The notes: a model not told the origin generated them from the sequence alone. A DNA stretch of 64,000 bases from Ranitomeya imitator (GCF_032444005.1 NC_091285.1:15500001-15564000); one strand, 5' to 3'. Counted from the first letter of the stretch, positions 24,801-55,300 are shown. Numbers and translations are program-made.

Positions 24801-26501
24801 CCTGTATTATACCCCAGAGCTGCACTCACTATTCTGCTGGTGCAGTCACTGTGTACATACATTACATTACTGATCCTGAGTTACATCTTGTATTATACCC
24901 CAGAGCTGCACTCACTATTCTGCTGGTGCAGTCACTGTGTACATACATTACATTACTGATCCTGAGTTACCTCCTGTATTATACCCCAGAGCTGCACTCA
25001 CTATTCTGCTGGTGCAGTCACTGTGTACATACATTACATTACTGATCCTGAGTTACATCTTGTATTATACCCCAGAGCTGCACTCACTATTCTGCTGGTG
25101 CAGTCACTGTGTACATACATTACATTACTGATCCTGAGTTACCTCCTGTATTATACCCCAGAGCTGCACTCACTATTCTGCTGGTGCAGTCACTGTGTAC
25201 ATACATTACATTACTGATCCTGAGTTACCTCCTGTATTATACCCCAGAGCTGCACTCACTATTCTGCTGGTGCAGTCGCTGTGTACATACATTACATTAC
25301 TGATCCTGAGTTACATCCTGTATTATACTCCAGAGCTGCACTCACTATTCTGCTGGTGCAGTCACTGTGTACACACATTACATTACTGATCCTGAGTTAC
25401 ATCCTGTATTATACCCCAGAGCTGCACTCACTATTCTGCTGGTGCAGTCACTGTGTACATACATTACATTACTGATCCTGAGTTACCTCCTGTATTATAC
25501 CCCAGAGCTGCACTCACTATTCTGCTGGTGCAGTCACTGTGTACATACATTACATTACTGATCCTGAGTTACCTCCTGTATTATACCCCAGAGCTGCACT
25601 CACTATTCTGCTGGTGCAGTCACTGTGTACATACATTACATTACTGATCATGAGTTACATCCTGTATTATACTCCAGAGCTGCACTCACTATTCTGCTGG
25701 TGCAGTCACTGTGTACATACATTACTGATCCTGAGTTACCTCCTGTATTATACCCCAGAGCTGCACTCACTATTCTGCTGGTGCAGTCACTGTGTACATA
25801 CATTACATTACTGATCCTGAGTTACATCCTGTATTATACTCCAGAGCTGCACTCACTATTCTGCTGGTGCAGTCACTGTGTACATACATTACATTACTGA
25901 TCCTGAGATACATCCTGTATTATACCCCAGAGCTGCACTCACTATTCTGCTGGTGCAGTCACTGTGTACATACATTACATTACTGATCCTGAGTTACATC
26001 CTGTATTATACCCCAGAGCTGCACTCACTATTCTGCTGGTGCAGTCACTGTGTACATACATTACATTACTGATCTTGAGTTACATCCTGTATTATACTCC
26101 AGAGCTGCACTCACTATTCTGCTGGTGCAGTCACTGTGTACATACATTACATTACTGATCTTGAGTTACATCCTGTATTATACTCCAGAGCTGCACTCAC
26201 TATTCTGCTGGTGCAGTCACTGTGTACATACATTACATTACTGATCCTGAGTTACATCCTGTATTATACCCCAGAGCTGCACTCACTATTCTGCTGCAGT
26301 CAGTGTCAGTAGCGCCACCTATAGCCCGTACTCCGGCATTACACTGGCTATACACAGCTGTGTGGCCCCTGCACTGCTCACGGCGCCCCCTCTCGGCCGG
26401 ATACGGACCTGCATGTTGGGGACGAATCCCTTGCGGATCCTCCAGCAGTTCTTGTGGATCTTGTCCAGATACTGTAACTCGTCATTGTAGCTGCGGCTCA
26501 T
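15882..26501 (-). CDS. RTCB: RNA-splicing ligase RtcB homolog (tRNA ligase complex catalytic subunit), complete
   Basis: Twelve GT-AG exons: 26501-26409, 18433-18355, 18081-18014, 17908-17809, 17716-17560, 17481-17325, 17240-17081, 17005-16830, 16745-16557, 16382-16272, 16192-16073, 15989-15882. Total 1518 nt = 505 aa + TGA. Runs [12 protein letters not shown]...PIAVIKG*, with motifs [24 protein letters not shown] and CHGAGR. Confidence 0.98.
18453..26297 (-). repeat. 86-bp (and 81-bp variant) minisatellite array, about 92 copies, RTCB intron 1
   Basis: Reverse complement of the 6001-13305 unit; 81-bp units lack one tacat. Confidence 0.98.
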
Positions 26502-27052: not shown

Positions 27053-30000
27053 ATGAAGCTGAGGGTCCGCGCCGGGAAGCAGAGCGGCCGCCTGGAGCTG
27101 CGGGACGGCGAGGAGACGCTGGGGGCGCTGCGGAGCCAACTGCGCGGGAGCTTCCTGCCCGGCCTGGGGTTCAGGTAGGTGAGAGGGCGGCGGGCCCGGG
27201 GGCCAGAGGCTGAGGGGAGCCCGGGGGCCAGAGGCTGAGGGGAGCGCGGGGGCGAGAGGCTGAGGGGAGCCCGGGGGCCGGAGGCTGAGGGGAGCGCGGG
27301 GGCCGGAGGCTGAGAGGAGCGCGGGGGCCGGAGGATGAGAGGAGCCCGGGGGCCAGAGGCTGAGAGGAGCGCGGGGGCCGGAGGATGAGAGGAGCGCGGG
27401 GGCCGGAGGATGAGAGGAGCGCGGGGGCCGGAGGATGAGAGGAGCGCGGGGGCCGGAGGATGAGAGGAGCGCGGGGGCCGGAGGCTGAGGGGAGCGCGGG
27501 GGCCGGAGGCTGAGAGGAGCGCGGGGGCCGGAGGATGAGAGGAGCGCGGGGGCCAGAGGCTGAGAGGAGCGCGGGGGCCGGAGGCTGAGAGGAGCCCGGG
27601 GGCCGGAGGATGAGAGGAGCGCGGGGGCCGGAGGATGAGAGGAGCGCGGGGGCCGGAGGATGAGAGGAGCGCGGGGGCCAGAGGATGAGAGGAGCGCGGG
27701 GGCCGGAGGATGAGAGGAGCGCGGGGGCCGGAGGATGAGAGGAGCGCGGGGGCCGGAGGCTGAGAGGAGCGCGGGGGCCGGAGGCTGAGGGGAGCCCGGG
27801 GGCCAGAGGCTGAGGGGAGCGCGGGGGCCACAGGCTGAGGGACCGTGTCCAGCGGAGTACTGGGGCCGCGTCCGGGGGCCACAGGCTGAGGGGCGGCGTC
27901 CAGCGGAGTCCGAGGGCCACAGGCTGAGGGGCGGCGTCCAGCGGAGTCCGGGGGCCACAGGCTGAGGGGCCGCGTCCAGCGGAGTCCGGGGGTCACAGGC
28001 TGAGGGGCCGCGTCCAGCGGAGTCCGGGGGCCACAGGCTGAGGGGCGGCGTCCAGCGGAGTCCGGGGGCCACAGGCTGAGGGGCCGCGTCCAGCGGAGTC
28101 CGGGGGCCACAGGCTGAGGGGCCGCGTCCAGCGGAGTCCGGGGGTCACAGGCTGAGGGGCCGCGTCCAGCGGAGTCCGGGGGCCACAGGCTGAGGGGCCG
28201 CGTCCAGCGGAGTCCGGGGGTCACAGGCTGAGGGGCCGCGTCCAGCGGAGTCCGGGGGCCACAGGCTGAGGGGCCGCGTCCAGCGGAGTCCGGGGGCCAC
28301 AGGCTGAGGGGCCGCGTCCAGCGGAGTCCGGGGGCCACAGGCTGAGGGGCCGCGTCCAGCGGAGTCCGGGGGCCACAGGCTGAGGGGCCGCGTCCAGCGG
28401 ATTCCGGGGGTCACAGGCTGAGGGGCCGCGTCCAGCGGAGTCCGGGGGCCACAGGCTGAGGGGCCGCGTCCAGCGGATTCCGGGGGTCACAGGCTGAGGG
28501 GCCGCCTCCAGCGGAGTACGGGTGTCACAGGCTGAGGGGCCGCGTCCAGCGGAGTCCGGGGGTCACAGGCTGAGGGGCCGCCTCCAGCGGAGTCCGGGGG
28601 TCACAGGCTGAGGGGCCGCCTCCAGCGGAGTACGGGTGTCACAGGCTGAGGGGCCGCGTCCAGCGGAGTCCGGGGGTCACAGGCTGAGGGGCCGCCTCCA
28701 GCGGAGTCCGGGGGTCACAGGCTGAGGGGCCGCCTCCAGCGGAGTACGGGTGTCACAGGCTGAGGGGCCGCGTCCAGCGGAGCATGGGGGAAAATTAGTT
28801 TTCCTTAAACACCCTCCCTCGCCCACAGTGTTTCCTCCCCTGCAGAGCCCCCCCTCACACAGTATATAAGGACCCCCGCGCACACTGTGACATCCCCCCC
28901 ATGCACACTATGACGTGCCCCCCGGAGCCCACTAACCCTGCACAGGCGACTGTCCCCACAGAGCCCCTGTCGTCGGCCTATTCCTGTCTTATCCACCAGG
29001 GGAGATTATGAGCACCGGAGAAAGCTTCTCCCGAGAGCAGGGCGCCTGACCTTTGCCCTCTCCTGAGGCATGATGGGAGGCAGGGGGTCCCTTGTGTGCC
29101 GCTGCTCACGGTCGTTTCGCTCCGGTTCTTTCCGCCCTCAGCCCTGATGTGGATTTCTCCATCACACTGAATGGCAGCGACTGCCTGGCGGAGGACGAGC
29201 GCAGCCTGGAGTCCTTGGGGATCGTATCCGGGGATCTGATCGTCATAGTAACCGATGAGCTCCCCGCCCCGGAGCAGCCGGCGCCTGCAGCCGCCACCGA
29301 CACCAAAGATGTCGGGTACAAAAGACAGAAATATGAGGGAGAAGCCGCTGAGGTGAGACGGAGTCGGCGCTGCTGCAGGAATTGCTTTTCTAGCGATTGT
29401 CTCATGTAAACCTGTTTCTCTGCAGGTGGAAGCGGCGGCAAACCGCTGCTCCCCGGAGCCCATGCTGATCAGCGAGGCCGCGGACGGGAAGATTCCGCAC
29501 TCCCTGGAGGCGCTGTACCCCGACTGCAGCTGCGCCAGCGACGCCCTCGTAATCGTTACCCACCGCCTCATGGTGGAGACCGGATACAAGGAGCAGGTGA
29601 GGAGTGACAGCGAGCGGCCATCGGGGGGCAGCAGAATAGTGAGTGCAGCTCTGGAGTATAATACAGGATGTAACTCAGGATCAGTAATGTAATGTATGTA
29701 CACAGTGACTGCACCAGCAGAATAGTGAGTGCAGCTCTGGGGTATAATACAGGATGTAACTCAGGATCAGTAATGTAATGTATGTACACAGTGACTGCAC
29801 CAGCAGAATAGTGAGTGCAGCTCTGGAGTATAATACAGGATGTAACTCAGGATCAGTAATGTAATGTATGTACACAGTGACTGCACCAGCAGAATAGTGA
29901 GTGCAGCACTGGAGAATAATACAGGAGGTAACTCAGGATCAGTAATGTAATGTATGTACACAGTGACTGCACCAGCAGAATAGTGAGTGCAGCTCTGGAG

Positions 30001-33000
30001 TATAATACAGGATGTAACTCAGGATCAGTAATGTAATGTATGTACACAGTGACTGCACCAGCAGAATAGTGAGTGCAGCACTGGAGAATAATACAGGAGG
30101 TAACTCAGGATCAGTAATGTAATGTATGTACACAGTGACTGCACCAGCAGAATAGTGAGTGCAGCTCTGGGGTATAATACAGGATGTAACAGGATCAGTA
30201 ATGTAATGTATGTACACAGTGACTGCACCAGCAGAATAGTGAGTGCAGCTCTGGGGTATAATACAGGATGTAACTCAGGATCAGTAATGTAATGTATGTA
30301 CACAGTGACTGCACCAGCAGAATAGTGAGTGCAGCTCTGGAGTATAATACAGGAGGTAACTCAGGATCAGTAATGTAATGTATGTACACAGTGACTGCAC
30401 CAGCAGAATAGTGAGGGCAGCTCTGGGGTATAATACAGGATGTAACTCAGGATCAGTAATGTAATGTATGTACACAGTGACTGCACCAGCAGAATAGTGA
30501 GCGCAGCTCTGGAGTATAATACAGGATGTAACTCAGGATCAGTAATGTAATGTATGTACACAGTGACTGCACCAGCAGAATACTGAGCGCAGCTCTGGAG
30601 TATAATACAGGATGTAACTCAGGATCAGTAATGTAATGTATGTACACAGTGACTGCACCAGCAGAATAGTGAGTGCAGCTCTGGAGTATAATACAGGATG
30701 TAGCTCAGGATCAGTAATGTAATGTATGTACACAGTGACTGCACCAGCAGAATAGTGAGTGCAGCTCTGGAGTATAATACAGGATGTAGCTCAGGATCAG
30801 TAATGTAATGTATGTACACAGAGACTGCACCAGCAGAATAGTGAGTGCAGCTCTGGGGTATAATACAGGATGTAACTCAGGATTAGTAATGTATGTACAC
30901 AGTGACTGCACCAGCAGAATAGTGAGTGCAGCTCTGGAGTATAATACAGGAGGTAACTCAGGATCAGTAATGTAATGTATGTACACAGTGACTGCACCAG
31001 CAGAATAGTGAGTGCAGCTCTGGAGTATAATACAGGATGTAACTCAGGATCAGTAATGTAATGTATGTACACAGTGACTGCACCAGCAGAATAGTGAGTG
31101 CAGCTCTGGAGTATAATACAGGATGTAACTCAGGATCAGTAATGTAATGTATGTACACAGTGACTGCACCAGCAGAATAGTGAGTGCAGCTCTGGAGTAT
31201 AATACAGGATGTAACTCAGGATCAGTAATGTAATGTATGTACACAGTGACTGCACCAGCAGAATAGTGAGCGCAGCTCTGGAGTATAATACAGGATGTAA
31301 CTCAGGATCAGTAATGTAATGTATGTACACAGTGACTGCACCAGCAGAATAGTGAGTGCAGCTCTGGAGTATAATACAGGATGGATTTCTTTCACTCTCC
31401 TTATTGCCTGTTCTTGCACTTTCCAGGGTGTGACGCACAAGGTGTCTTCCATGCCTGAGGACTGGAGAAGTGGTGACGGCGTCTACAAGCTCCACTACTC
31501 CCATCCGCTGTGCGGTGACAGCTCCACAGCGCTGGTCTGTGTGCCAATGGGCAAACTTCTGATCATCAATGGTGAGCCCGGTATTACAGTGAGGGAGATG
31601 TCTCTTCTTCAGTCGGCTCCCGAGCCGCATTCACAACTCCACTGTGTCTTTTGTGGAGTGTCTTGCTGCGTTGTTATATACCATAGTCTGTGGGATCACT
31701 AGTAATCGGTTGTGGCTTGTGATGCAGCTTTAGATGTGAGTGGAGTACGGAGTCTCGCGTCTGATCTTACATTACTCTGTCTTGTCTCTTTGCAGCCACT
31801 TTAACCATCGGCGGTGAGCTGAGGTGCATGAAGAGGCTGCAGATTCTCATCGATTCCTACATCTCCTTCCCGCAAGAAGGTAAGAAAGTCACGGCAGGAC
31901 TGTACAGACTGGACAAAGGCCACATAACAGCCCACAGGGACCCCCTTCTCTGTACAGCGGCTGGTCTTGCTGTGATGCGAAACTGCGCTGTGAGCCAAAT
32001 AGATTGTGCCAGCTTCTCCTTCTACCCTCTCACAGCATGAGTCTCACAGGCTGAAATGACTCCTCATCTTCTTTCTCTCACAGCAGGAGTCTCGCAGAGA
32101 GGCTGTAATATGACTCCTCATCTTTCTCTCACAGAGAGGCTGTAACATGACTCCTCATGTTCCTTCTCTCACAGCATGAGTCTCACAGAGAGGCTGTAAT
32201 ATGACTCCTCTTGTCTCACAGCATGAGTCTCTCACAGTGGCTGTAATATGACTCTTCATCTTCCCTCTCTCACAGCATGAGTATCACAGAGGGGCTGTAA
32301 TGTGACTCCTCTACCTTCACCCCCTCTCACAGCATGAGTCTCACAGGCGTAATATGACTCCTCATCTTTTTCTCACAGAGAAGCTGTAACATGACTCCTC
32401 ATGTTCCTTCTTTCACAGCATGAGTCTCACAGAGAGGCTATAATATGACTTCATCTTCCTTCTCTCACAGCATGAGTATCACAGAGGGGCTGTAATGTGT
32501 CTCCTCTACCTTCTCCCCCCTCTCACAGCATGTGTCTCACAAAGAGGCTGTGATATGACTCCTCATCTTCCTTCTTCTCCTCCCCCATCCCCCCCCCCCC
32601 ATTTCACCCAGTGACTCATGTCTGTAACACCATCCCTCCTCCTTCTCTTTTTTTTTTCCCCCATCCCACAGCAAGAGTCTCAAGCAGACCGTGAATGAGA
32701 AATTCCTCTGCAGCTGCATCCCCCTCCTCCCTCTCTATCTGCCCTGAGACCGCAGTCATCATCACATTATACTACCAATGCAAATCACTTTCCTTTTAGA
32801 CCGTTCTGTGGCCTCGGTGTACAGGGACTTGCAGAAGTTATCACGCCTCTTCAAAGATCAGGTGGTGTACCCTTTACTTGCTGCTACTCGGCAAGGTAAG
32901 AGCTCAGCGGCGCCCCCATAGGGGACTGGGGGGAGGGCTGCAGCTAGTGGATCTGACCATTTCGCACTCCTCCATCCCACAGCCCTGGGTCTTCCCGATG

Positions 33001-33805: not shown

Positions 33806-36800
33806 AAGAGATCAAGTGCCCCCCTATCGTATTCGGGACCCTGGACCGATCCTACTGAGGTACGCTGGCCAATCGGAGGCACTACTACTCCCAGGAGAGG
33901 ATGGGAGGTCGCACCGCTCCTGTTTATCCTCTTCAGATGGAGTTTATGTTCTCATTTACTAATTTGTTAAAGGGAAAGTCCACCGAGGAGCAAACTGCCT
34001 TATTTACAGTTTACGTTTTTTTTTTCCCTTTTGAAGGGGGCTAGTAACAGCTGAGCCCCTTTTAATAACCCAGCGGGGTCATACCTAGGGGTACACTTAC
34101 TTCACTTAGTACATTATTGTACCCATCATCCAAAATTTTGAAAAAATTCTGGTGACTGCAATTTTCCCCCAATTTTTCACTCCCTTTGTCTGGCTCTATG
34201 GGGTCCAGGAAGCTGAGATTTGGGGGGTGGTTTGATGGGGTCCTTACACTGCCGAGCTGCTGGGAAGTTTGGTCGCTGGCAATTAATTCCTTAACGGGCA
34301 TCTCGTCATATAGCTCAACTTCCTATGATCGTTATTAAGTAGACCGCCCTCCATTTTTTTTTTCTTTTATGGCTTGAAAGCATCTAAAATAAAAGATGGA
34401 GCGAGACAGTGATTAAAAAAAAAAATCTACCGTTTTGCGTATACAGCTATTATGCAGAACTATGCATCACTGTGGTAACAGACTACAAACAAAACACCCC
34501 ATGTAGTCCGATCCTCCCCCAACGCCCTTCCAACTGTTCTCTTCCTGATGGAACGACAACTCCCATATTTCAGAGGGAGGGGCAGAGGCGAGGCAGCGAT
34601 GCTCACAAGATCTGACTACATGGAGTTTGTAGTCTGTTTCCATAGAGACAAGTTGAACCTAAAACTGAAATCTGTCCATCACAAAGTTATACTTTTTTTT
34701 TTTTGTGTGTGTGTGCGTTTCCATCAATAGACGATCAGCATAAGGTGGGGTAAAGCTCTCCGGCTGGTGTTAGATTGTAAGCTCTTTGGGGCAGAATAAG
34801 TTGGAAATATTTCAGATTTCAGTTGAATGAAGTTATAAAATGGCTTTTTACATTGTTTGTTGCTAATTTTGTCCTATACTGAGGACAATAATAATTAAAA
34901 AAAAGAAAAAAAAGTTGCTTATAAAAAGTTCCAGACTCTAATATCTTTAATTACAGTTGTGTCTGAGCTAGTGGGTAGAAACCAGCTGCTGTGATGTGTC
35001 TCCCATATACAACACACAGACATGAGGGATTCCTGCTCTCTTATCTAGCACATGTTCAGACCCAGCAGCTGCACAGATGATATAATACAGCAGTGTGGCT
35101 GTGAATCCAGCTGTAAGATAAATTAAAACACGGGGACATTATACAGCAGTACTGAGCAGTGTAGCTGTGCATCCAACACTGGGATGAGCTACAGCCCTTA
35201 CAATGCTAGTAAACATCTTCTCGCTTCTCCCCCCTCCCTCCCTCTCTGCTCTCCCTCTTGCTCACTGCTCTTCCCCCCCCCCCTCGCTCGCTGCTCTCCT
35301 TTCCCGCTCGCTGCTCTTCTCCCCATTCTCTTTTGCTGCTTTTTTCAATCTCTAGTGCCATCAATAAACGGCTTTGACCTGATTCCTCAGTGGGCAGCCT
35401 GTCTTGTATACAGCTGGATGGATTCGAGCCGTTTTTTAGAGTGGAGAAGTGGCTCATAAGTGGAGAAAGACAGTTTTTGTTTTTTTCTGAATTATATTGT
35501 ACTGTTGATTTTATGCAAAATTTGTTAAAACAAAAAAACATTTAGGCAGCTTTTATTTATTTTTTTTCTACTATCATCAAAATAAACACAAATACACAAA
35601 ACGTAAAGCAGGAAGATCCTGGAGTAAAACTGTGGAATCCAAGGCCACATCTTCCATCATCCACCCCCACCTTTTTCAATTACCCAAAAATCGCCTTCTC
35701 AGTGCTCCTTACTTGTCCAGAGTCCGGCTCTACCTCCACTTTCCAGGATTAGTGAAACATAGCTGCCATACCTGTTTATCGATTGTATCTTCAGTTCAGT
35801 TCCATTGAAGTAAATGAAACTGGACTGCAATACCATTAAAAACCTGTAGACAGGTGGGGCGCTGTTTCTAGAAGAAAACTCATGTTTCTATAACCCTGGA
35901 CAAGCTTCTCTAAAGGAACTGAAATGAAGCTGTGATTTGGAGAATGAGGAAAATAAATGTAAATTCTACAGGTGTACGAATTCAATAGTAGAAGATGGTA
36001 TCAAATACCCAGTTCTAAGTGCAAGCTGCAGAATCCCAATAAAGAACATTTTCTTCTTGATATATACATTGCTATGGGTTTGGGTTTCTTTTTTTTTATT
36101 TTTATCATTTGCATGTTGGTCTTCAAGCCAAGATGTGAAAAGTGGGAAATCTCTCTGAGGACATGAGTTAACGACTCACAGTATATGGCTCTGTTCTTGG
36201 TCTCTATATTACTTGAAGACCCAAAGGATGGGAAGCATTGATGACGTAACCTGATGTAACCGAGAAATTTCACATTTTTATGAATTATCTAAAATTCAGA
36301 TTTCAAGACTTGATTTTATATTTCTGTAATCAGCACCAATAATCCACAAATTTAGATCAGGGGACAGTAATGGGGTCCGACTTAACTCCAATTGAGAACT
36401 TTACCTGAAAATTCAAACTGCATAGAATGTCCTCATCTCCCATATGTTGGGGCATATGGACACAAGTGGATCAATGGCTTTTGTGGGATACATAAACCAA
36501 TTCAGACCTCTTTGAGGCCCAAAGGATGGAAGCATAAATTGTAAACCTGATTAAACTGAAAAATGTTGCATCTTGTATGCGAGTTAGATTCTTAAGACGT
36601 AATTTTATGCTTTTTTATTCGGACTCCCATGACAGCACACGAGAGAGGGGATCCGCCCTTAAGGAACAGGAAACCTACAGATACAAAAGGGCGGCACCTC
36701 TCCCCATGCATCAGTTGGTTTCCTGTTCCTGAAGGGACTGGATGCCTATAGAAACTACAGAAGTCCAGGCCGGCCGGACCGATTCTGGTGGCGAGAGGGT

Positions 36801-37287
36801 CTCCCACTTCGGCCGGTGCGGGTACCTGAAGTAGTCACGGTGGCCCTGGCAGGGCGGCACGGCGGTGACTAGGCAGCGAGGAGCGGTCGCCAGGGGGTGT
36901 CCGGTCTCCGGGGCCAGCGTCTGGTAAGTCGCCCTTCCCGTGGGCTGTGGGTCTCTCTGGAGCAGGGGGGAGCGCGGCGGCATCTGGGGGCGCCGATCGG
37001 ATCGTAGCTGGCTGGCCTCGGCGTTCCACGAGAGCTGCAGCGCTGACAGGAAGCGCTGTAAGCTGTGGTGACGTCGGGGGGCGGAGCCGGCGACGTCTTC
37101 CGGATCGGCGAGCTCCTGCGCATGCGCGGGGGCTCCAAGATGGCGGCGCCCACCGGAGATCATGCCGCAATCCCTCCGGAGCGACGATTGATTCCCCACA
37201 GCTGCGGGGGGGGCGGGAAAATTAAACAAACAAGCTGGGCAAGGTGCGCTGACCGAAGGAGGGGCCTTATAAGGCGGCTCCAGCAGC

Positions 37288-38888
37288 ATGTTCCCGGGTT
37301 CTGGCTCCAATTTACTGAAAATGGATTCAGATCAGGATCAGCAGGTTGTGCTGCTGGAACAAGCATCCCAGAAACCCAAGGAGAAGGAACATGAAAAAAG
37401 GAGCGATGGTTCGGGCCGCAGAAGCTCCTCCAGACAGGGGTCTGGAGGGTCAGTCAAAAAGGATCCCCCTCATGCTTCGGTATTTCTGGGTGTGAGCAGC
37501 CACTGGTAAGTGATCTTCGAGAAAGTTCACTTAGTGACTAGTCTCCCCTCATGTGTTTTATGCAGGGAAGGAAAAACGTCAGTAAGGCGAAGCATAGGGA
37601 ATGTGCCATCTGCGGGGTTCCCTTGCCTGACTCACACCCTAAAAAACTATGTGACCCCTGTATCCAGCAGACGGTGAGGTTCTGGAAGGAGGGGAGGGGG
37701 TATAGCATGTAGATTTTACACTCTAGTCTACCTTACTTATCCCCGTAGGTAGCCGAAGAATCCTCCTCTATTACGGCCAGTCTCAAGGAGATGATTAGAA
37801 TGGAGGTTAAGGAGTCCTTTAAAAACCTTTCACAGTCAGGAGGTTCTAGGCAGAGAACTGAGTGGGCATCTGATTCGTCTGTGGAAAAGGACAAGTCCGA
37901 AGAATCAGACAATTCAGCAGCATCATCCTCCTCTTCGGAAGAAGACGCTGCTCGGTTTTGCCTACCCCTAGAAAGGATAGACAAATTGGTAAAGGCGGTC
38001 AGAGGCACAATGGGTATATCGGAACCCAAGCCTCAACTATCCAAAGAACAAATGATGTTCAGTGGATTGGAGCAAAAGAAGCGCAGAGTGTTTCCTTTAA
38101 ATGAGAAAATACAAGATCTTATTAATAGGGAATGGAGGAAACCTGAGAGAAAAGGCTCCTTACCACCTGCGCAAAAACGCCGATACCCTTTTGATGACCC
38201 AGCAGTAGGTAACTGGGAGAAAGCACCCAAGCTGGATGCAGCAATTGCCAAGGTAGCTAAACGATCTTCTCTCCCATTTGAAGATATGGGAACACTTAAA
38301 GACCCCCTGGATAGGAAAGTGGATACCTTCCTGAAGGGAACCTGGGAGATGGCAGCTGGCTCCTTAAGACCTGCGGTAGCTTCAACCTGCACGGCAAGGT
38401 CAATGATGGTCTGGCTGGACCAGTTGGAGACCCAATTAAAACAAGGGGCCTCTAGAGAGTCCATTCTCTCAGCATTACCTGTAATCCAGGAGGGGGCGGC
38501 TTTTTTATCAGACGCCTCAATTGACTCCGTAAAGTTGGCAGCTAGAGCAGCAGGACTTTCTAATGCTGCAAGGAGAGCCCTATGGCTGAAATGCTGGCCG
38601 GGGGATATGCAGGCAAAAGCGAAGCTCTGCGCTATCCCTTGTAAAGGCGAATATTTATTTGGGCCTACCCTGGATGAACTCCTGGAGAAAGCAGGAGATG
38701 ATAAGAAAAAGTTTCCCAACCTGTTCAATCCATACCGTCGTCCCTTCAACAAAAGAAGGTTCAACCGGGGAGGAAAGCGAGCCTTTTCACCAGGGAGAGA
38801 TCGTCCCAGATGGGAGGATAGGCGAAAGCGAGGTACAGGTCTCATGTTTCGCCGTAACCAGACGGAAAATAAAAAACAAGACCAATGA
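37288..38888 (+). CDS. DIRS ORF1 gag-like protein (LAP2alpha-like domain), probably spliced
   Basis: The main exon 37749-38888 has VFPLNEKIQDLINREWRKPE...APKLDAAIA...LKDPLDRKVD, typical of vertebrate DIRS ORF1. Putative upstream exons are 37288-37491 and 37566-37673 (CAIC-x12-CDPC). Confidence 0.8.
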
Positions 38889-40781
38889 CTAGCAATTCCA
38901 GTGGGAGGGAGACTATTGCATTTCTCGGCAGAGTGGTCGAAAATCACAAACAGCGTTTGGATAAAAGACACTGTTTCCCATGGTCTCAAGCTGGAATTTG
39001 TTCATATTCCACAGGACAAATTTAGGTTAACACCCTGGCGCTCATCTCCCACTGAACAATTCGCCCTAGAAGAGGAAGTGAGGACTCTCTGTTCCAAAAA
39101 TGTTTTGGTAGAAGTGCCGTATTCTCAGGCAGGGGAAGGGTTTTACTCTCCCCTGTTCCTAATCCAGAAGCCTGATAAATCTTACAGGACCATTATAAAT
39201 CTTAAGGGTCTCAATAAGTTTTTGGTGAAACATACTTTCAAAATGGAGTCCATCAATTCGGCAATAAAAATGCTTTTCAACAACTGTTTCATGGTAGTAG
39301 TGGATTTGAAAGATGCCTACTATCATGTACCCATTCATGCTGATTTCCAACGATACCTGAGGGTAGCGATACTAATGGGGGGTAGGATTCGACATTTTCA
39401 ATTCAGAGCGCTCCCCTTTGGGATCACCTCGGCACCTAGGGTGTTTACTAAAATAATTGCGGAAGTTATGGCGCATTTAAGAGAGTCAAATATCCTTATA
39501 GTCCCCTACTTAGACGATTTCCTCATTGTAGGTAACTCGGTAGATCATTGTCTGTCACAATGGGAGATTGCTAAAACCAAACTAGAACGGTTGGGTTGGA
39601 TCATAAACTTTGAAAAATCTAAATTACAGCCCCTAAATGTTCAAAAATTCCTGGGGTTAATGTTGAATTCAGTGACACAGCAGTGTCTCCTCCCTATAGA
39701 GAAAATGGACCAAATTCAGAGTTTTGTATTAAGAGCAATCAATACACCTTCCATGACACTTAGGCAAGCAATGTCTCTACTTGGGTCACTCACATCTTGC
39801 ATCCCAGCAGTTAAGTGGGCTCAGTTCCACACCAGGTCCCTACAAAATGAAGTCCTGTTCCATGACAGAGCCTTAGGAGGCGCATTGAATGGAAAATTGA
39901 CATTGAGGCCGATAACATTGAATTCCCTTAGATGGTGGCTAGATAAACAAAATTTATCAGCAGGGGTTCCCTGGATGATAGATGTCACCCACGTGATAAC
40001 CACGGATGCCAGCTCTTCAGGGTGGGGAGCCTATATGGGGGACATGGTGGTCCAGGGACAGTGGGAACCCTTCACAACATTTTCATCAAATCAAAGAGAG
40101 TTGTTGGCGGTTGAACTGGCTGTTAAAAAATTCCTCGTATATCTGCAGGGCCAGCACGTCAGAATTCTGTCGGACAACAGAGTGGCGGTCGCTTACATAA
40201 ACCGGCAAGGGGGAACTCGTTCCGAAACTTTAATGCAGATCACGGATCGGTTGTTCCAGGTGGCAGAGCTCAATTTTCTATCTTTGACAGCTCTTCACAT
40301 CAAAGGAAAAGAAAATGTGGCAGCAGATTTCCTCAGCCGAAATGTGTTAAAACAGGGAGAGTGGTCTCTCAACGAGGACATTTTCAATCTTGTCGTCCGC
40401 AGATGGGGTCAACCAGTGGTGGATCTATTCGCCACCAGAAACAACAGAAAAGTAAAACTTTTTTGCTCCCTAAATCCCAGGGAGAATCCCCTGGCGGTAG
40501 ACGCGTTTCTCATGAAATGGGATTTTCCACTAGCCTATGCTTTCCCACCACTGAACCTGATACCTCTAGTGGTGAGGAAAATCAGGGAGGATCGAGCGAA
40601 AGTCATCCTTATCGCCCCCTTTTGGCCCAGAAGAACCTGGTTTGCCTGGCTCAAGACAATGTCTGTAGCGGTCCCCTGGGTACTGCCAGAGATCCCGAAC
40701 TTGCTTTCGCAGGGACCGATCTCCCATCCACAAGTGACGGGGCTCCATTTGACGGCATGGTGTTTGAACGGTCACTATTAG
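38889..40781 (+). CDS. DIRS ORF2: reverse transcriptase, RNase H and DNA adenine methyltransferase-like domain
   Basis: RT: RTIINLKGLN, DLKDAYYHVPI, LPFGITSAP, YLDD. RNase H: TTDASSSGWG, RELLAV, SDN, NVAADFLSR. MT-like: VDLFAT...YAFPP. In frame with ORF1 directly after the TGA at 38886-38888. Confidence 0.95.
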   Translation, partial: LAIPVGGRLLHFSAEWSKITNSVWIKDTVSHGLKLEFVHIPQDKFRLTPWRSSPTEQFALEEEVRTLCSKNVLVEVPYSQAGEGFYSPLFLIQKPDKSYRTIINLKGLNKFLVKHTFKMESINSAIKMLFNNCFMVVVDLKDAYYHVPIHADFQRYLRVAILMGGRIRHFQFRALPFGITSAPRVFTKIIAEVMAHLRESNILIVPYLDDFLIVGNSVDHCLSQWEIAKTKLERLGWIINFEKSKLQPLNVQKFLGLMLNSVTQQCLLPIEKMDQIQSFVLRAINTPSMTLRQAMSLLGSLTSCIPAVKWAQFHTRSLQNEVLFHDRALGGALNGKLTLRPITLNSLRWWLDKQNLSAGVPWMIDVTHVITTDASSSGWGAYMGDMVVQGQWEPFTTFSSNQRELLAVELAVKKFLVYLQGQHVRILSDNRVAVAYINRQGGTRSETLMQITDRLFQVAELNFLSLTALHIKGKENVAADFLSRNVLKQGEWSLNEDIFNLVVRRWGQPVVDLFATRNNRKVKLFCSLNPRENPLAVDAFLMKWDFPLAYAFPPLNLIPLVVRKIREDRAKVILIAPFWPRRTWFAWLKTMSVAVPWVLPEIPNLLSQGPISHPQVTGLHLTAWCLNGHY

Positions 40782-41791
40782 TGGGAAAAGGCTTCTCTCC
40801 AAACTTGGTGGAGACGCTCCTAAAGAGTAGAAAGCAAGTAACTACGAAAATCTACTCTAGGACTTGGAGAAAGTTCTTGTCTTGTTCAAAGTTTAATATC
40901 CAAGACGGGGTGCCAGTACAACAAATCCTAGAGTTCCTACAGAAGGGGTTCGAGTTGAAACTCTCTCCTAGTACCCTTAGGGTACAGGTCTCAGCTTTAG
41001 GTGCCCTGTTTTCCTGTAATATAGCGAATAACTACTGGATAGCGAGGTTTATGAAGGCAGTTAGTAGATCTACACCACTGCATAAAGACAGAACAGTTCC
41101 ATGGGATTTAAATTTAGTTCTGTCCTCTCTAACTAAACCCCCCTTTGAACCTCTGCAGGAGGCCTCGATCAAAATGTTGACACTTAAGACAGCCTTCCTG
41201 ATCGCCATAACCTCAGCTCGCAGGATAGGGAATATACAGGCACTTTCCAGAGCTCCTCCATACACTGAAATCTTGTCAGACAGAGTAGTCCTTAGACCAG
41301 ACCCAGCATATCTGCCAAAGGTGGCGACACGGTTCCATAGATCACAGGAAATAGTTTTGCCGTCCTTTATTCCTAATCCCTCTAATCCTAAAGAGCAGGA
41401 GCTTCATACGTTAGACGTCAGGAGATCTCTTCTTCAGTATATTTCAGCTACTGATAATTGGAAGAAGGATGGGGCACTGCTTCTTTCCTTCCAAGGTCCA
41501 AAGAAAGGATTTAGAGTATCGAAATATTTACTGGCTAAATGGATTAGGGAAACTATCTCTCTAGCTTATACAGCAGGTGGGGGGCCAGCTCCGCAGAACC
41601 TAAAGGCACATTCCACCCGGGCCATGGCGTCATCCTGGGCAGAAAGATCTGGAGTGTCAGTGGAGCAGATATGTAAGGCGGCCACATGGTCATCCCCTTC
41701 CACTTTCTTTAAACACTATCGGTTGGATTTGGGGTCCTCCTCTGATCTTTCCTTTGGGTTAAGGGTGCTACAATCTATAGTCCCTCCCTAA
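40361..41791 (+). CDS. DIRS ORF3 tyrosine recombinase
   Basis: Catalytic motifs ITSARR, AHSTRA (H-x-x-R), ATW and FFKHY. Overlaps ORF2 in another frame (40361-40781); an alternative ATG lies at 40757. Confidence 0.95.
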   Translation: MVSQRGHFQSCRPQMGSTSGGSIRHQKQQKSKTFLLPKSQGESPGGRRVSHEMGFSTSLCFPTTEPDTSSGEENQGGSSESHPYRPLLAQKNLVCLAQDNVCSGPLGTARDPELAFAGTDLPSTSDGAPFDGMVFERSLLVGKGFSPNLVETLLKSRKQVTTKIYSRTWRKFLSCSKFNIQDGVPVQQILEFLQKGFELKLSPSTLRVQVSALGALFSCNIANNYWIARFMKAVSRSTPLHKDRTVPWDLNLVLSSLTKPPFEPLQEASIKMLTLKTAFLIAITSARRIGNIQALSRAPPYTEILSDRVVLRPDPAYLPKVATRFHRSQEIVLPSFIPNPSNPKEQELHTLDVRRSLLQYISATDNWKKDGALLLSFQGPKKGFRVSKYLLAKWIRETISLAYTAGGGPAPQNLKAHSTRAMASSWAERSGVSVEQICKAATWSSPSTFFKHYRLDLGSSSDLSFGLRVLQSIVPP

Positions 41792-43362
41792 GGTAGCTTA
41801 CATCTCTGTAAATCTCTCGTGTGCTGTCATGGGAGTCCGAATAAAGCATTAAGCTACTTACTGGTAGCGGCATTTTTCGGAGGCCCATGACAGCACCCTT
41901 AGTTCCCTCCCTATTCACGTGGGGGTAGCACTTCCTGATATGTATATAGCGTAATATGTAAATCTCACGTATGGTGTCTTATTACAATAATGGGTTATTT
42001 TGTTTCAAATGTATATAATGTATATATTGTATATTTGTGTACCACTAACCGCGGCAGTCCTCTCAGGCTCTGAAATACAACTGATGCATGGGGAGAGGTG
42101 CCGCCCTTTTGTATCTGTAGGTTTCCTGTTCCTTAAGGGCGGATCCCCTCTCTCGTGTGCTGTCATGGGCCTCCGAAAAATGCCGCTACCAGTAAGTAGC
42201 TTAATGCTTTTGGCCAAAATATTGAATCTGATCTTAACATTTGTAATCTCTAAATTATTGCAAGGCCAATGTCTAAGGTACAGTAATGGGGTCTGACTTG
42301 ACCCAAGCCCATTATTGTTCCTTGATATTCAAAATATACAAACCCAACTCAAGTGTTTTTTTTTTTTTACCAAAGCCAGAGTAATGTGTAAAGTATTATT
42401 ACGGGCTATTGTTTTTTAGGTTAATATATAGTTGTGTTTTAGGAAGACACAATTTTTGGGGAACTACATGCACTACAGAAAAACTACCAGAAGCCATGTT
42501 GTACCTTTATATGGATTTTTCGTGGCGGGAAGACTTATTGGTAAACATAAACATAAGTCGCAATGACTGGAATGGCTTCAAGTTTTTGCATAAGTTATTG
42601 AGTGTAGGGGGGCGAGGAACAAGGTTTTTCTGGGTGGTTGAGGAGTATGAGATGGGTTGATGGATTTGAATGGCTCTAACTGCGCTGTGCAGCATTGTTG
42701 ATATGCCTGAGGCAATGGCAGCATAGACAGGATCGAGTATCAAGCATTGGTAAGGGTCGGCTTCACTTAATATTTGGACTACAGAGATCCGAAGTCGCGT
42801 AGAGAAGTTGAATACGAATGTTTTCTGGACTTAACTGCAGTAAGGGTCCGTGGTAAGATGGGCTACATGTTCTAGAAAGTCTTAGTCTGAAGCTAAATGC
42901 CAGTCTCTCCAGAACATTCCATGGTCTTCATCGGTTTTGGGTTCCTGAGGATGAGGGTTGAGCACCACAGGTACGAGATATCCGAACACATACTCATGCT
43001 GGGTAAACTGTAGATGGGTGGGGGGGACACCACAGGAAATATCTGGAAGGTTAGAAAACTGGAGATGATTCCACCAAGTTTAGGGATCTTTACTAGGTTT
43101 CAGGCTTTGACTCCCAACTAGTTACAAACATTCAAGAAGTTGAGGAACCATTGAGGGATGACCGAAAGATGACCAACTGTAAGATGTGGTTGGAGTTGGG
43201 GAAATATTCTATACAGACGTTTTTATGATAATCTTCTGGTAGTACAGAAATGTATCTGCATGATCCAACAGAATAAGGTGTCGTGATAAGGTCACACTTT
43301 CATGTGTTTGGGTGACTTTAGGAAGAGCAAAGCTCAACCGAAGAAAATATGTGTTTATTTAC

Positions 43363-49300: not shown

Positions 49301-52300
49301 TTATTTAGCACTATATAGCGATATATTTTGTGCCTCATTCTCTCTACTTATATATGACTCTGTTCCTCACCTCGATAATATAATCCTTGTCATCTTTGCT
49401 GTGTACGGCTTTCACCGCGCAAATGTCCAAACCGCCAAACATCTCAGCGCAGGAGTCCGCCCACAGCCGGTACCTGAAACGACAATTACACAATATTCAC
49501 GATATACTTCTACTGTAATGGACTGATACAAAACTCCAAATCCTCAGCTCATAATGACTTCTCTGTAATGTTGTATTGTATCTGCCTGCAGCCACCACTA
49601 GGGGGAGCTCCCTGTATACAGAGATACATGATAAGATCCTGTCTGCAGTCACCACTAGGGGGAGCTCCCTGTATACAGAGATACATGATAAGATCCTGTC
49701 TGCAGTCACCACTGGGGGGAGCTCCCTGTATACAGAGATACATGATAAGATCCTGTCTGCAGTCACCACTAGGGGGAGCTCCCTGTATACAGAGATACAT
49801 GATAAGATCCTGTCTGCAGTCACCACTAGGGGGAGCTACTTGTATACAGAGATACATGATAAGATCCTGTCTGCAGTCACCACTAGGGGGAGCTCCCTGT
49901 ATACAGAGATACATGATAAGATCCTGTCTGCAGCCACCACTGGGGGGAGCTCCCTGTATACAGAGATACATGATAAGATCCTGTCTGCAGCCACCACTAG
50001 GGGGAGCTCCCTGTATACAGAGATACATGATAAGATCCTGTCTGCAGTCACCACTAGGGGGAGCTCCCTGTATACAGAGATACATGATAAGATCCTGTCT
50101 GCAGTCACCACTAGGGGGAGCTCCCTGTATACAGAGATACATGATAAGATCCTGTCTGCAGTCACCACTAGGGGGAGCTCCCTGTATACAGAGATACATG
50201 ATAAGATCCTGTCTGCAGCCACCACTAGGGGGAGCTCCCTGTATACAGAGATACATGATAAGATCCTGTCTGCAGCCACCACTAGGGGGAGCTCCCTGTA
50301 TACAGAGATACATGATAAGATCCTGTCTGCAGCCACCACTAGGGGAAGCTCCCTGTATACAGAGATACATGACAAGATTCTGTCTGCAGCCACCACTAGG
50401 GGGAGCTCCCTGTATACAGAGATACATGATAAGATCCTGTCTGCAGTCACCACTAGGGGGAGCTCCCTGTATACAGAGATACATGCTAAGATCCTGTCTG
50501 CAGCCACCACTAGGGGGAGCCCCCTGTATATAGAGATACATGATCAGATCCTGTCTGCAGTCACCACTAGGGGGAGCTCCCTGTATACAGAGATACATGA
50601 TAAGATCCTGTCTGCAGCCACCACTAGGGGGAGCCCCCTGTATATAGAGATACATGATCAGATCCTGTCTGCAGCCACCACTAGGGGGAGCTCCCTGTAT
50701 ACAGAGATACATGATAAGATCCTGTCTGCAGTCACCACTAGGGGGAGCTCCCGGTATACAGAGATACATGATAAGATCCTGTCTGCAGACACCACTAGGG
50801 GGAGCTCCCTGTATACAGAGAGACATGATAAGATCCTGTCTTCAGCCACCACTAGGGGGAGCTCCCTGTATACAGAGATACATGATAAGATCCTGTCTTC
50901 AGCCACCACTAGGGGGAGCTCCCTGTATACAGAGATACATGATAAGATCCTGTCTGCAGTCACCACTAGGGGGAGCTCCCTGTATACAGAGATACATGAT
51001 AAGATCCTGTCTTCAGCCACCACTAGGGGGAGCTCACTACATATACACATAATTCAGTGAGCTCCACCTAGTGGTGACTTTAAGCACCAAGTATTTAATC
51101 AATTAACTCTTTGTGATAAGCCTCTCACCTGTCAGTCATTGCGATCTGCTCCAACATGGCCGAGCCGGTGTTTGCCTTCCAGTTCCCAGAAATAGACGTG
51201 CGCCTTAATAAAAAATATAAAGCAACAGAAATAAATCCTGGTGTTTTACAATCTTCTGCTGTGAGAAAGACTTAGGGTTTTGGGTAAAAAGAAGGTTTCC
51301 ATTCACTGACTGCAAGTGTAGAAGTAAAGTGACTGTGGCCGGCTTCTCCCAGCTGGTGAGGTGGGTTTCTTGGGGGTCTTTTCATGGGTCTCTGCACCTG
51401 CGGTGATCAGCGGAGTTAACCCTCGCTGGGGCAGAGCTCGTTGCCATTCTCTCCACGCTCCCTATGAAAGGGCTGGAGGCAGCCGGGGCTCGCAGCTGAC
51501 GTTCCCATCATTGCGGCTTTATATTGGGCCGGTGGCTATTGGCTCGGGCCGCAGACCACGTCCCGGCCTCGCAGACAGCGCGGTATTGTTCGGTAGCCGA
51601 TTCCCCCCGGGGTGCGTGTCCTGCGCTTCCTGATGTGCGGATCTCCCACAAGGACCCGTGCCCGCCTGTGATGGCTTCATTGTGCCCTGTGCACCCACAT
51701 CATGCGGGGTCACCCGGCTGCAGCCATTAATCATACGAGTCACCAGGCGGATGATGAGAGTGAGAGTTACCCTCCGCACACACCATGTACAAGGGACAGT
51801 CCATCATGGGGGGCAGCGATTGGCACGGGGGTCCTGAACATCTTTGTTGGATCCTCGCTATGTAGTCACAGTATTTATTAGGGGTGAGAAAGGAACGAAC
51901 GATTAATAAACAGTATTCTATGGATATACTCCAGAGCTGCATTCATAATTCTGCAGGATTTCCTTCTTGGGCCCCCATATCATAGGAGCACAGCTAAACC
52001 GTATGGCTGTGTGCACATGTTGCAGATTTGTTGCCTTCTTTCTGCGTGGATTTGTGGCAAAACTTGAAGTGTCATTCACACGGGGAAGAAAATAATCTGC
52101 AGCGTCAATTCTCTGTGCATCACTGCCAAGAGATGGAGAAATGTTACTCAATGGCTGTGCCTGACAACAACCTAGCTGACTGTTTCATAATAACCAACAG
52201 AATTATGAATACAGCTCAGGATGTAACTCAGGATCAGTAATGTATGTACACAGTGCCTGCACCAGCAGAATAGTGAGTGCAGCTCTGGAGTATAATACAG

Positions 52301-55300
52301 GATGTAACTCAGGATCAGTAATGTAATGTATGTACACAGTGACTGCACCAGCAGAATAGTGAGTGCAGCTCTGGGGTATAATACAGGATGTAACTCAGGA
52401 TCAGTAATGCAATGTATGTGCACAGTGACTGCACCAGCAGAATAGTGAGTGCAGCTCTGGGGTATAATACAGGATGTAACTCAGGATCAGTAATGTAATG
52501 TATGTAACCAGTGACTGCACCAGCAGAATAGTGAGTGCAGCTCTGGGGTATAATACAGGATGTAACTCAGGATCAGTAATGTAATGTATGTACACAGTGA
52601 CTGCACCAGCAGAATAGTGAGTGCAGCTCTGGGGTATAATACAGGATGTAACTCAGGATCAGTAATGTATTGTATGTACACAGTGACTGCACCAGCAGAA
52701 TAGTGAGTGCAGCTCTGGAGTATAATACAGGATGTAACTCAGGATCAGTAATGTAATGTATGTACACAGTGACTGCACCAGCAGAATAGTGAGCGCAGCT
52801 CTGGAGTATAATACAGGATGTAACTCAGGATCAGTAATGTAATGTATGTACACAGTGACTGCACCTGCAGAATAGTGAGTGCAGCTCTGGGGTATAATAC
52901 AGGATGTAACTCAGGATCAGTAATGTAATGTATGTACACAGTGACTGCACCAGCAGAATAGTGAGTGCAGCTCTGCGGTATAATACAGGATGTAACTCAG
53001 GATCAGTAATGTAATGTATGTACACAGTGACTGCACCAGCAGAATAGTGAGCGCAGCTCTGGAGTATAATACAGGATGTAACTCAGGATCAGTCATGTAA
53101 TGTATGTACACAGTGACTGCACCTGCAGAATAGTGAGTGCAGCTCTGGAGTATAATACAGGATGTAACTCAGGATCAGTAATGTAATGTATGTACACAGT
53201 GACTGCACCTGCAGAATAGTGAGTGCAGCTCTGGGGTATAATACAGGATGTAACTCAGGATCAGTAATGTAATGTATGTACACAGTGACTGCACCAGCAG
53301 AATAGTGAGTGCAGCTCTGCGGTATAATACAGGATGTAACTCAGGATCAGTAATGTAATGTATGTACACAGTGACTGCACCAGCAGAATAGTGAGCGCAG
53401 CTCTGGAGTATAATACAGGATGTAACTCAGGATCAGTCATGTAATGTATGTACACAGTGACTGCACCTGCAGAATAGTGAGTGCAGCTCTGGAGTATAAT
53501 ACAGGATGTAACTCAGGATCAGTAATGTAATGTATGTACACAGTGACTGCACCAGCAGAATAGTGAGTGCAGCTCTGGAGTATAATACAGGAGGTAACTC
53601 AGGATCAGTAATGTAATGTATGTACACAGTGACTGCACCAGCAGAATAGTGAGTGCAGCTCTGGAGTATAATACAGGAGGTAACCGTGTGGTGGGATTAT
53701 TAGTGTACAGTAAAGGGCAGAGGCCTCGCACTCCTGGCCCAGGTGACCAGGTCTTCTGCTGACTTTTTGTACGTTATCCTCAAAAAATCTTCCTCCCTGT
53801 GAGTCATTGGGGTCCTCCCTTCACTTCCTGGGGATCCCCCATCACTTTCTCCGCAGTCATCACATGTTTGGTGTCTTTGGGACGGCGGTCTCTGACATCA
53901 GCTCGTCTTCCAGTAATTCCATCTGTGTAGACAGGGCAAGGACCCCGGGGCTGGGTCTCCGAAATGACGGCAGCAGATACATTAACTAAATAAACTCTGC
54001 ATCCAGGAACCTGCAGTGACCTTATCTGACACCGACACTGCGCACTTAACCCTTTACTGCAGACGTCCCACATATGAGGACTTGATTGACTTTAGCTGCC
54101 CCATTTTTGGCCCTGATAGATGCAACACAGAGAACATGGAGAAGTGCTGGGGAGGCAGAGACACGATCCCGGGGAAGCAGCAACACGATGCCGGGCAGGC
54201 CGCGAAACGATGCCGGGGAGGCAGCGACACAATGCCAGGAAGGCCACGACACGATGCTGGGGAGGCAGCGACACAATGCCGGGGAGGCCGCGACACAATG
54301 CCGGAGAGGCAGCGACATGATGTCGGGGAGGCCACAACACGATGGCGGGGAGGCCGCGAAACAATGCTGGCGAGGCAGCGACATGATGTCGGGGAGGCCA
54401 CAACACGATGGCGGGGAGGCCGCGAAACAATGCTGGCGAGGCCGTGACACGATGCAGGGGAGGCCACGAAATGATGCCGGGAAGGTCGTGACACAATGCC
54501 GGGGGGCAGCGACATGATCCCGGGGAGGCCGCGACACAAAATCGGGGAGGCAGCGACACAACACGATTCCGGAGAGGCCGTCACACAATGCAGGGAAGCC
54601 CAGACACGATGCCGTGGAGGCAGCAACACAATGCCGGGAAGACCACAACACGATGCCAGGGAGGCAGCGACAATTGCCGGGGAGGCAGCGAAACAATGCC
54701 GGGAAGGCAACGACACAATGCCAGGGAGGCAGCAAAACAATGCTGGGGAGGCCGCAAAACAATGCCGGGGAGGCCGCGACACGATTCCGGGGAGGCCAGC
54801 GACACGATGCCGGGGAGGCAGCGACACGATGCAGGTAAGGCCACGACACGATGCCAGGAGGCAGCGACACAATGCCAGGAATACCACAACACGATGCCGG
54901 GGAGGCAGCGAAACAATGCTGGGGAGGCTGCAAAACAATGCCAAGGAGGCCACGTCACGATTTTGGTGGAGGCCGCGACACGATGCCGGGAAGGCCGCGA
55001 CATGATGCAGGTGAGGCCGCGAAACAATGCCGGGGAGGCCGCAAAACAACAACGGGGAGGCCATGACACGATGCCAGGGAGGCAGCAACAAATGCCCGGG
55101 AGGCAGCGAAACAATGCCGGGGAGGCCGCAAAACAATGCCGGGGAGGCCACCACACGATGCCGGGGAGGCCGCGACACAATGCCGGGGAGGCCGCGACAT
55201 GATGCCGGAGAGGCAGCGACACGATGCCGGGGAGTCTGCGACACAATATCGGGGAGGCAGCGTCACAATATCGGGGAGGCAGCATCACAATGCTGGGAGG

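Follow-up and report, generated by a model that had tools for sequence, protein, structure and literature searches.

A candidate readthrough site at the in-frame gag-pol junction of a poison-frog DIRS-like retrotransposon

DIRS1-like families of Xenopus have ITRs, an ICR, a LAP2alpha-type ORF1, an RT/RNase H ORF and an overlapping YR ORF, the last of about 584 aa in the passages of PMC9210276 that describe these families. A link between LAP2alpha and DIRS ORF1 has been drawn in the section of PMC4495291 that treats it. The retrotransposon analyzed here has the same components, namely, ITRs, an ICR, a LAP2alpha gag-like ORF1, RT and RNase H, and a YR ORF (554 codons) that overlaps pol. It differs from the DIRS1-like pattern in that its pol shares the frame of gag and is separated from it by one UGA, whereas pol is in the +1 frame in 11 distant loci and in those frog families that could be tested.

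Stop codons in the CUAG context are read through in AQP4, MDH1 and LDHB. However, CUAG alone is insufficient, as readthrough of DUS4L, which has the same motif, is >10-fold below that of OPRL1. The published readthrough context consists of UGA-CUA, adenines at -1 and -2 and an extended 3′ stem, and the junction of the element matches it (PMC3159437, in its part on this context). The likeness to the alphavirus nsP3/nsP4 and OPRL1 type covers UGA-CUAG, both adenines and a predicted 3′ stem within ∼120 nt, but the CUAG motif of the element differs in the second known copy of the family, the protein model P0074. In the gammaretrovirus MuLV a single stop separates gag and pol in one frame (PMC3159437, in its retroviral part), and a Gag-Pol fusion is likewise proposed for the element; the MuLV stop is UAG, followed after 8 nt by a compact pseudoknot, in contrast to the UGA-CUAG and predicted long stem found here.

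Two further systems bear on the comparison. At the weak stop of antizyme OAZ1, termination, readthrough and +1 shifting compete, and UGA_CUA increases readthrough at the expense of +1 shifting (PMC9841425, in its passages on this stop). For the +1 DIRS families antizyme offers a model, and the [NHYS]D signature of the frog relatives described below fits UGA-Y; unlike antizyme, the 11 distant loci have varied P-site codons, with none in common, and the family of the element requires no shift. Like the element, the Candida retrotransposon Tca2 has gag and pol divided by UGA. It belongs to the LTR elements, however, and in a yeast reporter its junction sequence on its own produced no readthrough (PMC2194720). 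Thus, a gag-UGA-pol layout is not proof of simple readthrough.

The host element is an intact DIRS-like retrotransposon at ∼36613-42210, a young copy of a poison-frog family (Table 1). No further copies were found within the 64-kb window, that is, the whole stretch of 64,000 nucleotides that was analyzed. The nearest named relatives are dendrobatid proteins, and a Ranitomeya imitator protein model, matched in pieces, shows 0 differences over 75 gag and 53 pol codons. When the exons of gag are joined at the inferred splice sites, the reading is stop-free, 468 aa long and 45-53% identical to 5/5 full-length frog gag models tested. Pol matches the Pfam families RVT_1 (E 3.8e-21) and RT_RNaseH (E 1.9e-7) and the RT of Ty3 (E 4e-16). 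The region in the methyltransferase position has no Pfam match; the AFPP and P-x-W motifs given for DIRS pol in the relevant part of the PMC3266345 supplement occur in the pol translation. An Rfam search returned nothing near the gathering score.

Table 1. Positions of features in the window, with the evidence for each
Feature	Coordinates	Strand	Evidence
Left ITR	36615..36740	+	126 nt, 91% complementary to 42055-42180
Inferred gag exon 1 (ATG 37321), followed by 86-nt GT-AG intron	37321..37479	+	joined reading compared with frog gag models
Inferred gag exon 2 with CxxC..CxxC motif, followed by 75-nt GT-AG intron	37566..37673	+	joined reading
Gag exon 3 (LAP2alpha), ending CAA-TGA	37749..38888	+	PF11560 E 5.5e-18; homolog C-termini align
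+1 open frame, 100 codons, ending ..KTND-stop; possible remnant of an ancestral +1 pol frame	38590..38892	+	P=0.125
Weak potential stop-skipping intron, in frame	38833..38901 (donor 38833; acceptors before 38893 or 38902)	+	crude scores
46-codon -1-frame ORF from stop-overlapping AUG	38885..39025	+	same reading begins protein P0074
Candidate readthrough site, single in-frame UGA with CUAG 3′ context	38886..38892	+	sequence
Pol ORF, 630 codons (RT, RNase H, C-terminal region in methyltransferase position)	38889..40781	+	AUG-free before codon 119
Extended 3′ stem (predicted), which might stimulate recoding	38891..39003	+	folding z -1.9 to -3.4, four runs
Candidate splice acceptor, phase-compatible with YR frame, where the frame opens	40125..40149 (exon start 40149)	+	crude splice score
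YR ORF, 554 codons, overlapping pol	40127..41791	+	HSTR motif; Phage_integrase E 0.094 only; tblastn similarity to YR of 10 loci
ICR	41813..41896	+	100% complementary to both ends, 33/33 and 54/54 nt
Right ITR and extension	42055..42210	+	complementarity to left end

The junction reads ...CAA GAC CAA TGA CTA GCA ATT CCA GTG GGA GGG AGA. An earlier, sequence-only reading of this DNA had ORF1 end in CAA-TGA at 38886-38888 and continue with CTA-GCA-ATT-CCA-GTG-GGA in the pol frame, and a frame scan confirmed this: between 37749 and 40779, frame 0 contains one stop only, the TGA at 38886-38888. Gag homologs from several frog genera have their C-termini at the aligned position, which identifies the gag stop as a genuine terminus of the family. 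The terminal residue is Gln in 12 of the 22 naturally ending Gags (taken from 50 matches) compared with a background of 5.5%, a contrast whose p value is overstated because the families are related. The presence of only one copy in the window would allow a nonsense mutation or an assembly error confined to that copy, but given the aligned ends of the Gag homologs in several genera, and the same TGA and spacing in P0074, we consider this exceedingly improbable. Judged by these homologous sequences, the stop is neither a nonsense mutation nor an assembly error.

The first in-frame ATG lies past the RT motif RTIINLKGLN, as had been proposed (ATG 39243 is pol codon 119, and the motif occupies residues 100-109). 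Because RVT_1 starts at pol residue 92 and matches to solved RTs begin at residues 41-85, initiation at AUG 39243 would truncate the RT. Furthermore, the residues immediately past the stop are conserved protein sequence. G6, R8, L9, F12 and W16 of pol are retained in 25-26/26 aligned pols, a partly circular comparison, and a VGGR-like motif stands at the same place in 8/11 distant loci, which were fetched by their RT motif. This conservation indicates that the codons directly after the stop must be translated, so that Pol would be reached by readthrough, by near-cognate initiation or through a splice to 38893 or 38902.

Two copies of the family are known, and the second, P0074, is a protein model with frame breaks. 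Its pol is 98% identical to that of the element, and it starts with an ungapped -1 reading of the junction, which implies the same TGA and the same 12-nt stop-to-V spacing. The sequence-only reading had regarded a sense codon in other copies as evidence against itself; P0074 instead has the same stop and the same distance to pol. Third positions of pol are visible where P0074 is read in the -1 frame, and there the two copies differ by 6 pol-synonymous and 5 pol-nonsynonymous changes over ∼68-84 and 570-646 visible sites, respectively (pN/pS 0.09-0.12, p 0.0002-0.001; p 0.007-0.02 without two CpG changes). Assuming that P0074 represents one copy, a pN/pS of ∼0.1 between copies with the same spacing indicates that pol was selected after the in-frame junction arose. 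The in-frame junction is thus inherited and functional, with pol under purifying selection between the two copies, both of which have the conserved stop followed by the in-frame ORF. An initial idea, that the junction reflected a deletion or assembly error in one copy, was abandoned in view of P0074 and the selection test. A search for family members with the +1 ORF found none among 28 candidates.

Loss of one base might instead have cut pol off, so that the subfamily would be mobilised in trans by the Pol of +1 families and the CUAG would be due to chance. All other families of known frame are indeed +1, CUAG is absent from P0074, and the RT of DIRS-1 is able to act in trans (PMC7192593, in its passages on that RT). 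However, the low pol pN/pS between two copies with the same spacing, the intactness of all ORFs and the 100% match of the ICR to both ends make mobilisation in trans improbable.

The probability that CTAG follows a given stop by chance is ∼0.004 at the base composition of the element, uncorrected for the number of windows scanned. The expectation that the leaky +4 to +7 context would be kept across copies did not hold: P0074 most likely reads UGA-CUG-G, retaining UGA-C-U only, and CUAG follows the stop in 0/11 distant loci, 6 of which have C as the base after the stop. Folding gave pair probabilities of 0.5-0.65 for the long-range pairs of the predicted stem and a z of +0.35 for the first 60 nt after the stop. 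In the distant loci the 120 nt after the stop reached z <= -3 in 6/11, and among 13 offsets this stretch had the most negative mean z (-2.9 versus -0.7 to -2.3), in loci that fold well generally. The modest strength predicted for the 3′ stem counts against readthrough.

Splicing that skips the stop would also place pol behind gag in frame. A donor at 38833 (or the phase-1 donors 38209 and 37582) could be spliced to an acceptor ahead of 38902 or of 38893, each of which is in the correct phase. The element has two inferred gag introns, donor 38833 is employed by gene models P0044 and P0052, and many frog gene models connect gag to pol via a donor at a CxGE motif. Yet the CxGE donor is GC in the element and missing from several families, and the gene models may be ab initio detours round the stop. 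Donor 38833 is outside the top 16 and its introns would be merely 60-69 nt long, the acceptor tracts are purine rich with scores of 5 and 10 versus 14-15 for the best sites (on a crude matrix), and the AG at 38891-2 is altered in P0074. We regard a spliced origin of Pol as unlikely.

Free Pol might also arise by termination followed by reinitiation at a near-cognate codon, GUG 38901 or AUU 38895, or from a junction promoter or internal entry. The GTG at 38901 has a +4 G and precedes all conserved pol residues but P4, a minor junction promoter is present in Tca2 (PMC2194720), and reinitiation at a stop-overlapping AUG is mentioned for the antizyme stop in the corresponding passage of PMC9841425. 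On the other hand, the -3 base of GTG 38901 is C, and the TGA overlaps a -1-frame ATG at 38885 (A-UGA), which opens an ORF of 46 codons; this neighbouring AUG, in the wrong frame, would capture reinitiation. Moreover, the V codon is GTG in 4/9 distant loci in which it could be placed but GTC, GTA or ATT in 5/9. Free Pol from any of these starts has, in our judgment, a low probability.

Comparison with other elements shows that pol following gag in frame is not the rule among DIRS. A GTDB scan with an RT-motif query yielded 13 loci of DIRS-like type, which presumably stem from eukaryotic sequence contaminating MAGs. Two (L011 and L013) were without the junction and were dropped; the remaining 11 cover it and come from five assemblies, six of them from one, so they are not independent. 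The pol frame is +1 in 11/11, and pol lacks an AUG ahead of its VGGR motif in 8/11, L003 being truncated at its contig end. The label "gag" in these loci denotes position and an R/G/K-rich tail, and the upstream ORF had no Pfam match in 6/6 tested.

Frog sister families that could be tested are also +1. In frog gag-pol fusion models the sequence before VGGRL is the +1 reading of the gag tail. By a codon-compatibility (dual-coding) test, 9/23 fusion models exceeded the top shuffle value (11 of 18) in the +1 frame, the best scores being 18, 17, 16 and 14 of 18; the remaining 14 were uninformative, and 0/23 exceeded the top shuffle in the -1 frame. The inferred stops of the frog +1 families are TAA-Y, TAG-R or TGA-Y, and the stop-to-V spacing is typically 13 nt, compared with 12 nt in the family of the element. 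Among 64 proteins that have 45 or more residues upstream, the dipeptide [NHYS]D, which is the +1 reading of UGA-Y, occurred 36 times in the last 14 residues versus 8 times in the preceding 31, an enrichment of about tenfold per position. The +1 frame of the element itself lacks stops from 38590 until the TAG at 38890; this opening was set aside as evidence, being nonsignificant by synonymous resampling both in the element (P=0.125) and in the 11 distant loci (P 0.17-1.0).

An RT tree of 48 rows unites the element with P0074 (100/97) and makes P0052 their sister (99/88); around them stand frog families with an inferred +1 pol. On grounds of parsimony this suggests that the in-frame junction is the derived state of the element's family, the deeper forks of the tree being weak. 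The junction is a real feature of a known type of element; it is not the DIRS norm and is probably derived.

In most of the distant loci the YR frame is the one that follows the gag stop. In 9/11 loci this stop is followed in frame by an ORF of 980-1003 codons that ends in YR. L002 has 382 open codons before its contig ends, and 11 stops close the frame in L012. Over pol, the YR frame has 0 stops in 10/11 loci compared with 13-26 predicted by synonymous codon resampling of pol, and none of 500 resamples reached 0 stops for any of the 10 open loci. The first YR-frame AUG ranges from codon 28 to codon 466 and is so variable and late that a conventional start close to the stop seems improbable, and readthrough would be the simplest way to reach YR.

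The YR frame of the element, which is -1, has 21 stops from the junction to 40126 versus 21.3 expected and 0 versus 6.4 from there to the end of pol. Alignments of seven homolog models start within 10 nt of the exon start at 40149. It is probable, from the phase and position of this acceptor, that YR of the element is made from spliced RNA via an acceptor near 40149.

We put the chance at roughly even that readthrough makes Gag-Pol in this element and that the junction was rewired from an ancestral weak stop, which probably gave Gag-YR by readthrough and Gag-Pol by a +1 shift. Most ribosomes would terminate at the gag UGA and yield Gag, whereas a minority would decode CAA-UGA-C as an amino acid and yield Gag-RT-RH-MT, possibly aided by the predicted 3′ stem. 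In other DIRS elements the corresponding stop separates gag from a YR ORF in the same frame, pol being in +1. In the lineage of the element the long YR overlap would have closed, with YR probably moving to splicing near 40149, and a junction shorter by one base would have let the output of readthrough fall in pol. The sequences show the frames, the conserved stop, the spacing common to two copies, selection on pol and the +1/YR layout of other elements; from these we infer the occurrence and level of readthrough, the part played by the stem, the splicing of YR and the order of events. Weighing against readthrough are the UGA-CUG-G of P0074, apparent splicing and the weak in-phase acceptors, the GUG codon and the Tca2 precedent.

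The DIRS ORFs are reportedly drawn in Goodwin and Poulter 2001 and Poulter and Butler 2015, where the gag-stop-YR layout may have been noted before. Full-text searches of other literature turned up neither readthrough nor frameshifting described for DIRS elements. The mode of translation of pol or the recombinase is unstated in the DIRS passages considered here from PMC9210276 (where stop codon, frameshift and splicing are unmentioned), PMC3266345, PMC7192593, PMC8547959 and PMC4495291, and likewise in those of PMC5633606, PMC6681497, PMC3783388, PMC8226300 and bioRxiv 10.1101/2021.04.08.439009; DIRS is unmentioned in the first 300,000 of the 449,034 characters of PMC5009743.

The canonical layout, with gag, stop and YR in one frame and pol in +1, is the larger lead, and its sequence features suggest a multi-output recoding site. 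It is possible, and we propose this tentatively, that one weak gag stop with 3′ structure yields three DIRS proteins, with termination giving Gag, readthrough giving Gag-recombinase and +1 shifting giving Gag-Pol, and that the frog family has been rewired from this state. If this is true, a widespread retrotransposon order would use a natural three-way recoding stop at which the readthrough and +1 products are both functional, and in the frog family frameshifting would have been replaced naturally by readthrough. Such a stop would also account for the YR/pol overlap of ∼650-700 codons, open from the first codon past the stop, and for the mis-annotation of DIRS elements by gene predictors.

In L010, one of the distant DIRS-like loci, a very stable extended stem (positions 2197-2320) was predicted to begin 6 nt past the UGA that ends gag, with folding scores (z) of -7 to -9 for the RNA after the stop. 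Among these predictions, it is the one best suited to testing whether such a structure stimulates recoding. A similar long-range stem was predicted in L008, and a 7-bp hairpin immediately 3' of UAG was predicted in both L001 (2942-2959) and L009 (1588-1605), preserved between the two apart from one G-U change.

The gag and pol stop contexts were alike within the same element in four loci (L004:5240-5246, L005:2372-2378, L006:5407-5413, and L007:3413-3419). TAG-CGG was found in L005, L006, and the pol of L004, and TGA-AGGT occurred twice in L007. This likeness may be due to chance. All 13 distant loci (L001 to L013) came from GTDB records of bacterial MAGs, with six in one assembly, and they are probably host contamination.

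The likely start codon of the tyrosine recombinase ORF (window 40757-40759) is altered in P0074, the protein model of a second copy of the window's family. Comparison of the two copies suggests either a more upstream start for the recombinase or a defect in P0074. Pieces of this family, 96 to 100% identical, are also spliced into unrelated host gene models of a Ranitomeya imitator annotation (P0044, P0047, and P0049), likely as a result of mis-annotation or exonization.

The 64-kb window holds tandem arrays of several kinds, and the 86-bp repeat among them may resemble the Xenopus Xstir repeat.

Tandem repeats and inferred gag introns in the window
Feature	Window positions	Remarks
86-bp tandem repeat arrays	6001-13305, 18453-26296, 29629-31383, 52217-53684	Both orientations
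57-bp minisatellite	1-1226, 49582-51035	Two sites
GC-rich tandem arrays	3358-5796, 27197-28782, 54145-56247	Several
Inferred gag intron	37480-37565	Short, GT-AG; CxxC..CxxC exon adjoins 3' side
Inferred gag intron	37674-37748	Short, GT-AG; CxxC..CxxC exon adjoins 5' side

Additional GTAAGT consensus donors lie at ∼36924 and 37506. For a retroelement that keeps its introns, unspliced RNA has to be packaged.
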